In this document: positions 42,621 through 56,217 of the stretch, one piece after another | How positions within the stretch are numbered: position 1 is the first letter of the stretch | Layout of the letters: every line of letters starts with the position of its first letter | NCBI GenBank assembly: GCA_017471285.1 | Contig: JAFUUZ010000026.1 | Location: 27-64,026, forward strand | From: Paludibacteraceae bacterium | Lineage (GTDB): Bacteria > Bacteroidota > Bacteroidia > Bacteroidales > Paludibacteraceae | Direction of reading: 5' to 3' | DNA: 64,000 nucleotides | Made by a program: the position numbers and the translations under genes | Notes under the pieces: model-generated | Databases searched by the model: none | Told to the model about the DNA's origin: nothing | Seen by the model: only the letters and a program-made list of their open reading frames with translations

Positions 42621-43226
42621 TTAATTTAATTCTCGGCAAGGCCGCACCGCGAAACCGTAAGCCCGGCCGTTGTTGCCCAACGGGTAGAGGTCGCTCGAAT
42701 AGAAGCCCAAGTAGTAAGCGTTAGCCTGGCTATCGGAGGCAAAAGACCAATAGCGGCCGTAGCTGCCAACATTGGTGAGCGCACCCGAAGCGCTAACACG
42801 GTAGCCGGAGGCTGGTAGGAAGATAGAGTTGCCATTAGGACCGACGACATCGTAGCCCTTCTTGTCAGAGTTCCAGGTCCACTTGCACTCTTCTACGAGT
42901 TCCGCGATAGCGACCGCTTTCGGAAGGAATTTGCCGAAGATGTCAACGGCCTCGTAGTGCGTGTAGTAGTCGGGCGCATTCTCTGTGGCCCACAGTCGGC
43001 CCGAAGGGAGGCCGAGGTCAACATACTTGAAGGCATCGGGATTGAAGGTTTCCTTCGTCAGCTTATTGGGATTGGCCTTCTTTTCGGGCCGCTCCGAAAT
43101 ACTGATGTCAGACACCTCCATACCCTCCGTATCTTCAACCATTTCGTTGAACAATTCCTCAATGTAGGAATCGCTCTTCTCTCCAAAAATATCGTTGGAG
43201 AGGTCAAGTTCGATAGTTACTTTCAT
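42621..43226 (-). CDS. DGR target protein 2 (201 aa), same CLec-type variable C-terminus
   Basis: ...FLPASGYRVSASGALTNVGSYGRYWSFASDSQANAYYLGFYSSDLYPLGNNGRAYGFAVRPCREL carries VR2. The N-terminus is acidic with no signal peptide. Confidence 0.88.
   Translation of the reverse strand: MKVTIELDLSNDIFGEKSDSYIEELFNEMVEDTEGMEVSDISISERPEKKANPNKLTKETFNPDAFKYVDLGLPSGRLWATENAPDYYTHYEAVDIFGKFLPKAVAIAELVEECKWTWNSDKKGYDVVGPNGNSIFLPASGYRVSASGALTNVGSYGRYWSFASDSQANAYYLGFYSSDLYPLGNNGRAYGFAVRPCRELN
42632..42812 (-). repeat. DGR variable region VR2 (remote, opposite strand)
   Basis: The reverse complement aligns gap-free to TR 35660..35840. 22 mismatches by hand count, all at TR adenines. Confidence 0.9.
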
Positions 43227-43402
43227 TTTCCTTTCTTGAATTTACCGAGGTGATTTTTTCTGAGGTAGCGCTTGTGCGTCTTGGAGGATGCGCGATAGAG
43301 ACCGTAGGCTTCGACATCGCCGAGATGCTCCTTGACAATCGGCATCATACCGCCGTAGTCCGGCATAAGATAGGGATAGGTTTTACCCCCCCCCCGTGCC
43401 AT
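43223..43402 (-). CDS. small basic protein (59 aa) translationally coupled to DGR target 2
   Basis: ATG 43402 (MARGGGKTYPYLMPDYGG...). Its stop overlaps the target-2 ATG (ATGA at 43226..43223). The reading frame passes through the G10 tract. Confidence 0.45.
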   Translation of the reverse strand: MARGGGKTYPYLMPDYGGMMPIVKEHLGDVEAYGLYRASSKTHKRYLRKNHLGKFKKGK

Positions 43403-43475
43403 TTTCCTGCGCAAAGAGCGCAGCAAGCGCCGCAAACAGACCGATGCGCCGCTTCAAAGTGGATGTTCCTTTCAT
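43383..43475 (-). CDS. 30-aa signal-peptide-like ORF ending just after the G10 tract
   Basis: Hand-read MKGTSTLKRRIGLFAALAALFAQENGTGGG then stop. Loss of one G would fuse it in frame to 43223..43402. Confidence 0.35.
   Translation of the reverse strand: MKGTSTLKRRIGLFAALAALFAQENGTGGG
43386..43395 (-). repeat. homopolymer G10 (C10 on the + strand)
   Basis: Counted directly in the sequence. Confidence 0.95.
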
Positions 43476-52746: not shown

Positions 52747-52778
52747 ATTTGTTGGGGTTAGAAATGTTCAGAGAAAAA

Positions 52779-52802
52779 AGTGGCGGGCTGCAACCCACCA
52801 CT
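52779..52802 (-). terminator. intrinsic terminator (- strand)
   Basis: On the - strand: AGTGGTGGG-TTGCAG-CCCGCCACT followed by TTTTTTCTC. Confidence 0.55.
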
Positions 52803-53018
52803 TGACGGATGTCGCGAATTGGTGCAATGTCACTTAGGGAGGGGACACCTTTCATCCGGCAGCTTGTCACAATTCAGTTCCGATTTAGGGGATAACTTAC
52901 TGCCATATTCGCAACCTACCCAAGACGGTGTGTTCCGTCGGACACCCCCGCATTATTACCCCTCCGCCCCTGGAATATCGGGGAAAGAATAGGGACATTT
53001 CGAGGTGTAGGAGGACAC

Positions 53019-53231
53019 CTATGCAGAGTTCCACGCAACAATCATAAGGACCGATGCGCTCGTTCCAAGCCAGCATCCCGAATGGCCGAGGAAGAGGCCG
53101 ACGACACTCACGATTCCAATTACGGCAAACAGAGCCGTAAAGAACTTACGGCTAAGCTGCTCTTGGTTGTCGTAGCACTTGTAGAGCGCCCTGCGAACAA
53201 CCCACAGTTTATGAAGAATCTTGCGTTTCAT
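53019..53231 (-). CDS. small membrane protein (70 aa)
   Basis: Hydrophobic FTALFAVIGIVSVVGLFLG and SASVLMIVAW. Confidence 0.5.
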   Translation of the reverse strand: MKRKILHKLWVVRRALYKCYDNQEQLSRKFFTALFAVIGIVSVVGLFLGHSGCWLGTSASVLMIVAWNSA

Positions 53232-53524
53232 TTTGAGAAAAAGACGATTTTAGATTTCTTGACGAATGTTCTGCCGGGCGTTCCGACGGGCGCAGTTGGC
53301 TCATACCAAACTTTTCGCTTTATTGGCAACTGTTTGGAACTGATATGAAGCCAACAACGACAGTTCTCAGAGGGCGAGCAGCATCCAAAGTCAACGCAAC
53401 ACTCGTCGCGAAACGGGTTGTGAATTGCAATGCCGAAAAATTGAAGAAGGCATTGAACTCGCGCGGTAAAGGCGATGTGCTTTCTCGCGGCCGAGCGTAG
53501 ATAGTATGTGTCAAATGCTTTCAT
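53228..53524 (-). CDS. Cys-rich hypothetical protein (98 aa)
   Basis: Track ORF with an ATGA overlap with 53019..53231. Composition is only moderately protein-like. Confidence 0.4.
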   Translation of the reverse strand: MKAFDTYYLRSAARKHIAFTARVQCLLQFFGIAIHNPFRDECCVDFGCCSPSENCRCWLHISSKQLPIKRKVWYEPTAPVGTPGRTFVKKSKIVFFSK

Positions 53525-53528
53525 AATG

Positions 53529-54353
53529 TCAAGTCAATGTCAAAATATTCTTCGAGAAATTGTTTTGTATGTAGTTGATATTCAGCGAATAGGGGGGGGC
53601 AATTGCGTCATAGAACTCCGCCATACTATTGCAAAACATCTTCATATAGACTGCATCATAGACATTGGCGAAGGTCTTTGCGCTCTTGGTGTCGGGGTGG
53701 TCCGTAAACCACTTATGGTAGGCTCGCACCCAGGCTTTGAACATCCGTGGGTATTGCTTGAAGTCGGCTCGTCCCTTGTCCGCTTGAAGAGGGCATCCGA
53801 TACAACCGACGCGGCGCTTCACGCAGAAATTTCCGTCGGCATCGTAGTAGTGAGGGTGGCATTTGATGCCGCGCATTTTGATGAACTGCTCCACATCCTC
53901 GTCGGTCCACTCCAAGATAGGCAGATACAATCGCACTTTCTCGGTCTTGGAATAGACGCGGCAGACTTCCGGCTCGTGGTAGCGCTTAGTCCTCGCGACA
54001 GATTCCGCCCTGCGGATTCCAAGCACGGCTCTGTCATAGACTTTATACTCCTTGAGCGCCTTGCAACAGAATCGCATCCAACGGCTCGGCCAACCCGATT
54101 CTTCAATCAGTTTGAGCATTCCCTTCGGCGGGTTGATGATTGTCGCGCCAACCTCCCTTGCGTGAGGAAGAGAGCCAGGGCGGTCAATCGTCGTGTTCTT
54201 ATAGATTGCCTCGAACGGGATGCCGGCCATTTTCGCAAGTTCAAGAATGACATCGCTATCCTTTCCCGTTGAGTAGGATATTTCTATCGGTCCGTCCTGC
54301 GGGATGCTTTGCAGAAGCTTAATCGCGAAGTCAATCTTGCGGTTGAGGTCCAT
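53529..54353 (-). CDS. PAPS-reductase-like PP-loop ATPase
   Basis: ISYSTGKDSDVILEL (SGGKDS-type PP-loop), GIRRAESVARTKRY, LPILEWTDEDVEQFI, and late GCIGCPLQ. Confidence 0.8.
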   Translation of the reverse strand: MDLNRKIDFAIKLLQSIPQDGPIEISYSTGKDSDVILELAKMAGIPFEAIYKNTTIDRPGSLPHAREVGATIINPPKGMLKLIEESGWPSRWMRFCCKALKEYKVYDRAVLGIRRAESVARTKRYHEPEVCRVYSKTEKVRLYLPILEWTDEDVEQFIKMRGIKCHPHYYDADGNFCVKRRVGCIGCPLQADKGRADFKQYPRMFKAWVRAYHKWFTDHPDTKSAKTFANVYDAVYMKMFCNSMAEFYDAIAPPYSLNINYIQNNFSKNILTLT

Positions 54354-54354
54354 A

Positions 54355-54621
54355 TCAGTTCTTGTCTTTTGAATCCTGCATCTGAGCCGCCAACTGATTG
54401 TCGAAGTCCGCTACTGTCAGAAGGAACTTGGCAAGGAAGGCTTCACGGCTCTCACATTCGAGATAGTGTCGCAGCATACCGTTGATTGCTGCGTCGGTGA
54501 ATGTCGGCCCGCCCCAACAGAGCGCGGCGGTAAGGTCAGATGTCTGTCCCTTTTCGAGTTTGCAATTGACTACCTTATTGTCGTCAAGGTCGAACGAGAT
54601 AATGATTTCTTTGTGTTCCAT
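54355..54621 (-). CDS. hypothetical protein (88 aa)
   Basis: Track ORF. Confidence 0.5.
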   Translation of the reverse strand: MEHKEIIISFDLDDNKVVNCKLEKGQTSDLTAALCWGGPTFTDAAINGMLRHYLECESREAFLAKFLLTVADFDNQLAAQMQDSKDKN

Positions 54622-54973: not shown

Positions 54974-55132
54974 TTAGGCCCACTTCACGGATTCCTTGCG
55001 GAACTCTTTGAGTGCCTTTTCGAGCGCGAAGGAAGTCTTACGAGCGCGAACGCCCGCAGCCTTCGTTCCCTTCTCAGCCTTCTCCGCATCCTTGATGAAG
55101 TCGAAGAAGAGGTCTTTGATTTTTTCAGTCAT
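54974..55132 (-). CDS. Hc1-type histone H1-like DNA-binding protein (52 aa)
   Basis: Hand-read MTEKIKDLFFDFIKDAEKAEKGTKAAGVRARKTSFALEKALKEFRKESVKWA. The AAG.RARK.S..LEK..KEFRK pattern matches Bacteroidota histone H1-like proteins. Below the track cut-off. Confidence 0.6.
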   Translation of the reverse strand: MTEKIKDLFFDFIKDAEKAEKGTKAAGVRARKTSFALEKALKEFRKESVKWA

Positions 55133-55143
55133 AGCAATAGATA

Positions 55144-55437
55144 TTAAGGGGTTACTGTTTTGATTCGTTTGAGGTCAGAGAGGCGATACCCACGGATGCC
55201 ACCCTGCTCCACGAAGGTAATCTTGCCTCGTGCGGCCCACGATTTCAGCGTGTGCGTGGTGCGTCCGACGAAACGAGCGGCCTCTGCGGGTGTCAGCACC
55301 TGGTCGCGCTCTTCGAGGGTGGCGATGCGGGATTCCAGCTCGTGACCCTTCTCGTTGGCAAAGCGCAACTCGCGAAGTATATCTTCGAGGATTTCCCCGA
55401 TAGGTCGCGGCTCGCAGTAGCGTTTCTCTTCTTCCAT
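55144..55437 (-). CDS. excisionase/MerR-type HTH DNA-binding protein (97 aa)
   Basis: LTPAEAARFVGRTTHTLKSWAARGKITFVEQGGIRGYRLSDL is a typical excisionase-family HTH. Confidence 0.65.
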   Translation of the reverse strand: MEEEKRYCEPRPIGEILEDILRELRFANEKGHELESRIATLEERDQVLTPAEAARFVGRTTHTLKSWAARGKITFVEQGGIRGYRLSDLKRIKTVTP

Positions 55438-55438
55438 A

Positions 55439-56217
55439 TCAGAAAAGTGTTAATTGCATTTGTTCCAAGTCTATGCGCTGCTGAGCGTAATCGCAGTAGC
55501 GCTTCGAGATTTCCGTACCGACATATTGGTATTTGTCTTTGATGCAAGCAATGGCAGTTGTACCCGTTCCCATAAAAGGGTCATACACAATTACCCCCCC
55601 CGTGCGTATATTGCTAATAATCTGCGACATAGCACGGTAGAGAATGTTGCCTTGTGGATGTCATTGCTTCCGTCGTTGTTGGGCGCTTCTATGAGGTTAA
55701 AGATGTTCTCGTAGTTGGCCTGGCCGGAGGCGCGGTGTGTCGTAACCTTCTTGTTGGTCTTAAAGGTGGCGAACTCGCTCTTGCGGCAGAACACAAAGAC
55801 AAACTCGCAGATGCGGGTCAGTTTATTCGGCGAGCAGGAGTTTGGCGAGGTGGTCGTCTTTTTCCACACGAGACAGTCGGCGACGATGAAGTTGGTCTTG
55901 CGCTGAATCTCCGAGACGACATTCCACATCAGCCAAGTGTTCTCGGCTGAGTAGCTGAGGTTGTATAGAACGCATCCGTCTTTGACGAGAACGCGGTCAA
56001 AACCCTCGAAGATGCGAAGCGTCCAATCAATGTATTCTTCGTCACTCTTGCGGTCGTTGTATTCGTCGTAGCGGACATTGGCGCAAGCGCCCGTCAATGA
56101 AGAGCCGCGCCGAGAGGTGTTGTAGGGAGGCGATGTCAGAATCACATCCACAGACTGCGGCTCGGCGGCTTGCATCCATTCGATACAGTCTTGGTTGTAG
56201 ATTCTGTTGACCTCCAT
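55439..56217 (-). pseudogene. beta-class N6A/N4C DNA methyltransferase interrupted by a frameshift at a G8 tract
   Basis: The N-terminal ORF (55591..56217) has ILTSPPYNT (motif IV). The C-terminal ORF (55439..55630) has VYDPFMGTGTT (motif I). One extra G in the G8 run (C8 at 55594..55601) gives ...LLAIYARGGVIVYDPFMGTGTT... in one frame. Confidence 0.8.

Follow-up and report, generated by a model that had tools for sequence, protein, structure and literature searches.

Length variation in a poly-G run sets the reading frame of a beta-class DNA methyltransferase gene in a temperate gut phage

The window analyzed here, a stretch of 64,000 nucleotides (nt) of contig JAFUUZ010000026.1 (positions 27 to 64,026) from the Paludibacteraceae assembly GCA_017471285.1, contains a phage gene for a DNA methyltransferase that breaks off at a run of eight guanines (G8). 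Is this gene a casualty of sequencing or of decay, or is it a functional gene that was captured in an inactive state? The first-pass annotation of the window, made from the letters alone, had left two options, an ON/OFF switchable phage methyltransferase seen in its OFF state or a sequencing error. Comparison with public copies of the same phage favors the first option, and we consider it probable that an orphan beta-class methyltransferase of a temperate, circular, 64-kilobase (kb) siphophage is switched by the G run, which would act as a slipped-strand (simple-sequence-repeat) contingency locus.

The two pieces of the gene lie on the minus strand as two overlapping open reading frames (ORFs; Table 1). 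ORF1 ends in ...LLAIYARGG and a stop codon directly behind the run (minus strand, ...GCA CGG GGG GGG TAA TTG TGT ATG ACC C...), and ORF2, which is in the −1 frame, reads MSQIISNIRTGGVIVYDPFMGTGTTAIA... and runs on as ...GGVIVYDPFMGTGTTAIA. Both pieces match the PF01555 (N6_N4_Mtase) profile, and the matches are consecutive: ORF1 covers positions 1-179 (E 1.6e-18, 67.9 bits) and ORF2 covers positions 172-220 (E 1.7e-12, 48.2 bits), where the curated cut-off is 26.7 bits. With a ninth G, the two frames are joined by the junction ...AIYARGGVIVYDPFMGTGTT... into a protein of 259 amino acids (aa), with SPPY at residues 29-32 and FMGTGTT at residues 215-221, so that motif IV precedes motif I in the circular permutation that characterizes the beta class. 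Among the run lengths encountered in public copies, only G9 is in frame. The lengths G7, G8, and G10 are out of frame and give products of 211, 208, and 212 aa, respectively, which terminate at or just past the run, ahead of motif I. The length of the run in the DNA thus sets the reading frame, and the OFF products lack the motif I of the S-adenosylmethionine (AdoMet) binding site. The first-pass annotation had described the interruption at G8 and its repair by one additional G, and this description proved accurate, including the coordinates of both ORFs, the ILTSPPYNT and LLAIYARGG segments, and the C8 on the plus strand at 55594-55601. Its beta-class assignment holds by sequence as well as by fold, and the G9 product that it had predicted exists among called proteins (P0124 and others).

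Run length was counted on approximately 60 public contigs of the same phage by way of protein clusters and an index, and the DNA of 27 loci was retrieved from assemblies in ENA, NCBI, JGI, and Logan; the run lengths given here are those of assembled contigs. The fused protein is matched by a 259-aa database entry with 100% identity (P0001/P0124). At 90% protein identity, the cluster has 15 members, and their C-termini fit the predictions from run length exactly: ...ARGG-stop for G8, ...ARGGNCV-stop for G7, ...ARGGGNCV-stop for G10, and the fused 259 aa for G9. In the DNA of the 27 loci, the run was G7 in five cases, G8 in 11, G9 in 10 (two of which are one contig), and G10 in two, and the flanks were the same in all of them. 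The exact 208-aa product of G8 was found on 27 contigs and in 38 index blocks, and G8 is the commonest allele by contig counts. Approximately 70% of the contigs carry this modal OFF allele and approximately 14% carry the ON allele G9, while all OFF alleles together account for approximately 85%. These data support G8 in the window as the OFF state and the commonest allele; the call for this particular sample rests on G8 being the commonest allele elsewhere. A search for the exact pattern of run and flanks found none in IMG/VR, none in the GTDB genomes, and only two contigs in the JGI metagenomes.

ON and OFF alleles occur on the same genetic background, and no other site changes as fast as the run. 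Loci L004 (G8) and L010 (G9) have no mismatches over 2,497 nt, the run excepted. Locus L021 (G9) differs from L024 (G8), which comes from a different study, by three substitutions in 6,628 nt in addition to the run, and from L025 (G8) by two substitutions in 2,320 nt in addition to the run. One gene haplotype is common to L009 (G9) and L023 (G10). A gene tree of 26 tips, built without the run, requires a minimum of 10 changes in run length and of six in the ON/OFF state, compared to a mean of 13 changes for shuffled run-length labels, so that descent hardly predicts the length of the run. A single pseudogenizing event was ruled out by the intermingling of ON and OFF alleles on this tree.

The same data bear on the possibility that the interruption is a homopolymer error in this assembly and that the true sequence of the sample is G9 with an intact gene. 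Long G/C runs are error-prone, the window belongs to a 55%-complete bin assembled with k=141, and a second run in the window (see below) is also one base below its in-frame length. However, G8 is the commonest length across independent studies, assemblers, and archives (ENA, NCBI, and Logan), and G7 and G10 recur too. Moreover, a third run in the window, G10, is one base above the length that would fuse its frames, which is contrary to uniform under-calling. All four run lengths were found in several archives and with several assemblers, and the pattern of variation is not what would be expected of per-read homopolymer errors averaged out in a consensus. An assembly error is thus a quite improbable explanation of the interrupted gene.

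Examination of the polymorphism within the gene indicates that both of its parts are under purifying selection. The gene is diverse at the nucleotide level (up to 4.8% differences, 18 haplotypes), while the proteins differ by at most two residues. In the N-terminal part (205 codons), synonymous polymorphism (pS) is 0.123 and non-synonymous polymorphism (pN) is 0.0017, with a pN/pS of 0.014 (63 synonymous and five non-synonymous polymorphisms). In the C-terminal part, read in the fused frame (50 codons), pN/pS is 0.09, and the ratio of synonymous to non-synonymous polymorphisms is 10:10 versus a neutral expectation of 20% synonymous (p = 0.003); the variable sites cluster at third codon positions in the fused frame only. 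This part is also constrained when the OFF alleles, which had not been selected through it, are taken alone (pN/pS 0.195; 8:10, p = 0.017). No second lesion, either a stop or another frameshift, was found in the methylase gene among the 27 loci. The simplest reading is that each lineage is ON often enough for selection to keep the whole enzyme. The option of a switchable methyltransferase that the first-pass annotation had raised is accordingly upheld by four run lengths (G7, G8, G9, and G10) on identical or near-identical backgrounds and by purifying selection on both halves of the gene.

Several points weigh against this reading. The constraint on the C-terminal part is weaker than that on the N-terminal part, and the test of the C-terminal part in OFF alleles is not significant without the divergent locus L007 (3:4, p = 0.15). 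Some contigs may be re-assemblies of the same sequencing runs, in which case the counts are not fully independent. In addition, a modal allele that is OFF, with approximately 14% ON, would also fit a mostly dispensable gene. The corresponding alternative is that the gene is decaying or dispensable and that the run is merely an unstable stretch of DNA, with changes between ON and OFF that have no selected role. The preponderance of the OFF alleles G7, G8, and G10, the weaker C-terminal constraint, and the mosaic arrangement of the flanking DNA-modification genes, one of which is absent from some copies of the phage, are in keeping with decay. On the other hand, decay is difficult to reconcile with the low pN/pS over 205 codons at 12% synonymous diversity, the lack of second lesions in the 27 loci, and the constraint on the C-terminal part in alleles that are OFF. 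The run itself is also spelled in rare codons and recurs at the same site in a relative with 76% identity. Decay is therefore improbable in our assessment, and a switch that is maintained by selection is the preferred reading.

The composition of the run suggests that it is not an accident of codon choice. In the codon usage of the phage, GGG is the rarest glycine codon (8%) and CGG accounts for 11% of arginine codons, and the chance of writing the residues R-G-G as CGG GGG GGG is approximately 7e-4. Among 41 Gly-Gly pairs in 16 phage genes, the pair in the methylase is the only one spelled GGGGGG. The 64-kb phage has three G/C runs of at least eight bases and none of six or seven bases, whereas the rest of the bin (1.49 Mb) has four runs of at least eight bases and 80 of six or seven, which corresponds to an approximately 17-fold enrichment of the long runs in the phage (Poisson p = 7e-4). 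A chance origin of the methylase run was ruled out by the codon usage and the census of run lengths. The first-pass annotation had proposed a comparison with orthologues. The relative with 76% protein identity, located in a different gene neighborhood, has GCC-G9-CGG at the same site and is out of frame (the in-frame lengths there are G7 and G10), while relatives with at most 67% identity have ordinary codons (GAAGGAAGT and similar), no run, and an intact gene.

A poly-G run in front of a −1 frame also invites an explanation at the level of expression, in which G8 is the working allele and −1 ribosomal slippage on G_GGG_GGG, or else transcriptional slippage on the run, supplies the full enzyme. 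The geometry is suitable, as ORF2 is in the −1 frame, the run fits the pattern X_XXY_YYZ, and the 0-frame TAA follows directly. Recoding would also explain why G8 is modal and why the C-terminal part is constrained in OFF alleles. However, G9 alleles that are in frame occur on the same haplotypes, the length of the run is not fixed, and the G7 and G10 alleles would need another shift. The 94 nt downstream fold at −14.3 kcal/mol, with z = +1.06 relative to shuffled sequences, and are thus predicted to form no stable structure, a result that would by itself still be compatible with slippage. Moreover, G-only heptamers are not known to act as efficient slippery sites. Recoding of a working G8 allele appears highly improbable, and a −1 frameshift was ruled out as the main mechanism, while slippage may add some leakiness.

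A further alternative, that an active split methyltransferase forms from the products of 208 and 63 aa in the G8 state, calls for similar consideration. ORF2 has an ATG of its own and contains all of motif I. Natural split methyltransferases exist, including M.AquI. In the present gene, however, the ATG of ORF2 occurs by chance where the two frames overlap. The G7 and G10 alleles retain an ORF of no more than 44 aa, with its start within motif I, and the structural model places the break after a helix and before the first strand of the Rossmann core. A two-piece enzyme is the least credible of the alternatives, and we assign it hardly any probability.

Under the preferred reading of the run as a contingency locus, polymerase slippage during replication would shift the run by one G at a time, at a rate far above that of point mutation. 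An in-frame G9 would yield the 259-aa enzyme, while the products of G7, G8, and G10, which lack motif I, are predicted to be inactive. The phage population may thereby hedge its bets between methylated and unmethylated genomes. Methylated genomes would be protected from restriction enzymes of matching specificity and may re-program the epigenome of the lysogen, whereas unmethylated genomes would bear no cost and would be invisible to methylation-dependent restriction.

What kind of enzyme is switched is indicated by its relatives and its predicted fold. The SPPY of motif IV is invariant across 26 homologues and aligns with TSPPYN of the cytosine-N4 methyltransferase 8s9m, and the region of motif I aligns with the DPFxGxGTT AdoMet loop of solved enzymes. 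The AlphaFold model of the fused protein has a predicted local distance difference test score (pLDDT) of 81.7 and a predicted template modeling score (pTM) of 0.83. The top 38 fold matches in the PDB are all beta-class cytosine-N4 (N4C) or adenine-N6 (N6A) enzymes (Foldseek, E down to 3e-17, template modeling score 0.68-0.72). The best match by both sequence and fold is the N4C methyltransferase N4CMT (8s9m; phmmer E 2e-16, Foldseek E 3e-17), followed by CcrM, M.MboIIA, M.BceJIV, M1.HpyAVI, and M.PvuII. The residues encoded by the run form a surface loop in the model, between the helix 194-204 and the first core strand 210-213 and ahead of the AdoMet loop, and this position is variable among homologues. 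An SPPY motif presumably favors N4-cytosine as the target base. Together with N4CMT as the best solved relative, it hints at N4-cytosine methylation, while N6-adenine is also possible; the nearest NCBIfam models are adenine-specific, with scores far below their cut-offs.

The phage enzyme shares the order of motifs IV and I, the TSPPYN and DPFxGxGTT motifs, and the fold with the solved beta-class enzymes, which include N4CMT of Adineta vaga (8s9m/8s9n), CcrM (6pbd), the DpnA-like M1.HpyAVI (5hek), M.MboIIA (1g60), and M.PvuII (1boo). It is only approximately 20% identical to them, and its target-recognition region is unrelated to theirs, so that their specificity is not transferable to the phage enzyme. 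None of these solved enzymes has a homopolymer switch. No res, hsdR, or hsdS gene was found at the locus, where the neighbors are small phage ORFs and genes for an excisionase-like helix-turn-helix (HTH) protein, Hc1, and a 3'-phosphoadenosine-5'-phosphosulfate (PAPS) reductase-like protein. In the absence of a nearby restriction partner, the methylase is classified as an orphan, and its gene content and domain composition identify it as a stand-alone, Type-II-like PF01555 enzyme rather than a mod or hsdM/S subunit of a Type III or Type I system. The first-pass annotation had referred to the phasevarions of bacteria, in which ON/OFF switching of a methylase alters how a group of genes is expressed. 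For the phage methylase, control of such a regulon would be hypothetical, and the enzyme is not a Type III mod. The neighbors named in that annotation were recovered by profile searches, namely PAPS_reduct (53529-54353), Hc1 (54974-55132), and the excisionase-like HTH_17 (55144-55437).

The element that carries the gene is a phage, as the first-pass annotation had assumed. The complete contig (C81) is 64,165 nt long with a terminal direct repeat of 141 nt, the signature of a k=141 assembly, and therefore represents a circular assembly of 64,024 bp within the metagenome bin. The phage was thus assembled as a free circle, or as a permuted genome, without host flanks. It encodes structural and packaging proteins (portal, large terminase, major head protein, and tape-measure protein), replication and recombination proteins (primase-helicase, sliding clamp, ERF, and a RecE-like exonuclease), and lysogeny functions (repressor-like HTH, excisionase-like HTH, and a tyrosine integrase), and is a complete temperate siphophage of a gut bacterium. 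Related contigs of 63.8-64.6 kb recur across several studies. No further copy of the phage region was found in 400 genomes of the host family that were searched at the DNA level, and no close relative was found among cultured phages, the best match being Fusobacterium phage phiKSUM with 43% identity. The place of the contig in the bin rests on binning only.

Two further observations concern the variability of the region. The block equivalent to 52750-54360, approximately 1.2-2.7 kb downstream of the methylase and between an 88-aa ORF and the HU gene, is mosaic among phages that are otherwise near-identical (loci L005-L028). Some have the PAPS-reductase-like gene, and in others its place is taken by a 72-aa ORF or by one or two unrelated ORFs of 121 aa. 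One member of the methylase cluster (P0127, 221 aa, two Logan contigs) continues with unrelated sequence after residue 174 (...NIFNLI), which in some samples points to a gene that was rearranged or received an insertion, or to a contig that is chimeric within it.

Table 1. Positions of the methyltransferase gene, its parts, and the three G/C runs in the window.
Feature	Coordinates	Strand	Remarks
Whole beta-class N6A/N4C DNA methyltransferase gene	55439..56217	minus	259 aa at G9; two ORFs in the window
ORF1, OFF-state product, 208 aa	55591..56217	minus	motif IV and target-recognition part, without the AdoMet-binding motif I
Motif IV, S29-P30-P31-Y32 (TCG CCT CCC TAC)	56122..56133	minus	catalytic
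Hypermutable run, G8 on the gene strand (C8 on the plus strand)	55594..55601	minus	part of R206-G207-G208
C-terminal 51 codons	55439..55593	minus	translated only with the run in frame; PF01555 positions 172-220
Motif I, F-M-G-T-G-T-T	55556-55576	minus	within the C-terminal 51 codons
ORF2, 63 aa, −1 frame	55439-55630	minus	motif I; own ATG at 55630
Second variable run, C8 on the gene strand	53592..53599	minus	near the 3' end of the PAPS-reductase-like gene 53529-54353
Third run, G10	43386-43395	minus	ORFs 43223-43475

The second run is located in the PAPS-reductase-like gene, which shares the strand of the methylase gene and follows approximately 1.2 kb downstream of it. Its length also varies among related contigs, giving proteins of 256 aa (C7), 274 aa (C8, as in the window), 277 aa (C9), and 257 aa (C10). 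Only C9 yields the C-terminus that is conserved in the family, ...PPLFAEYQLxTKxFLExYFxIDLTL, and the C8 of the window leads to a foreign tail of 22 residues. At the corresponding C-terminal site, homologues with 60-84% identity have either a run of C that encodes PP or a run of G that encodes GGG, with many frameshifted, truncated forms. Among the 12 loci that contain both genes, C9 was found in all four with the methylase ON (G9) and in one of the eight with the methylase OFF (Fisher p = 0.01). After collapsing identical haplotypes, the association has p = 0.03, in a small sample of related loci, and we treat the co-occurrence of ON and C9 as a weak lead.

The third run ends an ATG-initiated, signal-peptide-like ORF (MKGTSTLKRRIGLFAALAALFAQENGTGGG, then a stop), with the stop codon right after the G10. 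At this site, G9 would join the ORF to the frame 43223-43435, which adjoins, on its upstream side, the target-2 gene (42621-43226) of a diversity-generating retroelement, and the flanks of the run (GCAC-Gn-TAA) are similar to those of the methylase run. It is conceivable that at least three G/C runs make up a small "phasome" of the phage beside its diversity-generating retroelement, in which the methylase and the PAPS-reductase-like protein form one jointly selected, switchable DNA-modification module, but we regard this extended reading as unlikely on present evidence. If it were true, the C-terminal runs of PAPS-reductase-like proteins would represent a switch that is conserved across a large family of phage proteins.

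Outside of the phage, the remaining G/C runs of at least eight bases in the bin are C12:5357 (G9), C16:12831 (G8), C29:42939 (C10), and C79:16339 (G8). The run on C29 is close to the 5' end of a 410-aa ORF on the minus strand (MQENQRITRRGGGKNPL...) and is in frame, and this ORF could be a phase-variable gene of the host.

Methyltransferases that are switched by repeats are known in bacteria, including the Type III mod phasevarions of Haemophilus, Neisseria, Helicobacter, and Moraxella and the poly-G-containing Type IIG gene cj0031 of Campylobacter jejuni (PMC4889913, PMC6902483). The phage methylase resembles them in that an intragenic repeat sets the frame of the methylase and that ON and OFF states occur on the same background. 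Unlike them, it is a small, Type-II-like orphan of the beta class, without a res or hsd partner, and is carried by a phage. The CJIE1 prophage (PMC4004267) was ruled out as a precedent, as its homopolymer runs are in host genes and not in the prophage methylase.

Closer parallels are found among phage contingency loci. In phage T2, an A-run in agt flips the phage between sensitivity to TgvAB, which targets the modified base, and sensitivity to McrA/BC, and reversion at this run is approximately 1000-fold faster than that of a point mutant (Gomez, Barrick and Waters, bioRxiv 10.1101/2025.10.21.683753). The same work also cites a methylase gene with a poly-G run in Bordetella phage BPP-1 (Liu et al. 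2004) and Campylobacter Fletchervirus phages whose receptor-binding genes contain poly-G runs (Sorensen et al. 2021; both as cited in bioRxiv 10.1101/2025.10.21.683753). Common to these cases and the present one is a homopolymer that reversibly frameshifts a phage gene, a DNA-modification gene in T2 and BPP-1, and gives heterogeneous progeny. The trade-off in T2 between modification-dependent and other restriction was shown by experiment, whereas the evidence on the present phage comes from population genomics. It also differs from the other cases in being a temperate phage of an uncultured gut host and in combining three G/C runs with a diversity-generating retroelement.

Phase-variable methyltransferases have been well studied in a few bacterial pathogens, and phage contingency loci have been named only recently, with experiments in lytic coliphages. 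The present case extends the same device to a DNA-modification gene in a temperate phage of an uncultured gut anaerobe, as seen in public metagenome populations. For the annotation of phages and metagenome-assembled genomes, it means that frameshifted methylase genes at G/C runs are not to be dismissed as pseudogenes or assembly errors. A prophage methylase that switches could create epigenetic heterogeneity among lysogens. If the proposed trade-off between methylated and unmethylated genomes is true, such switches would help to explain how gut phages retain access to hosts with differing defense repertoires.

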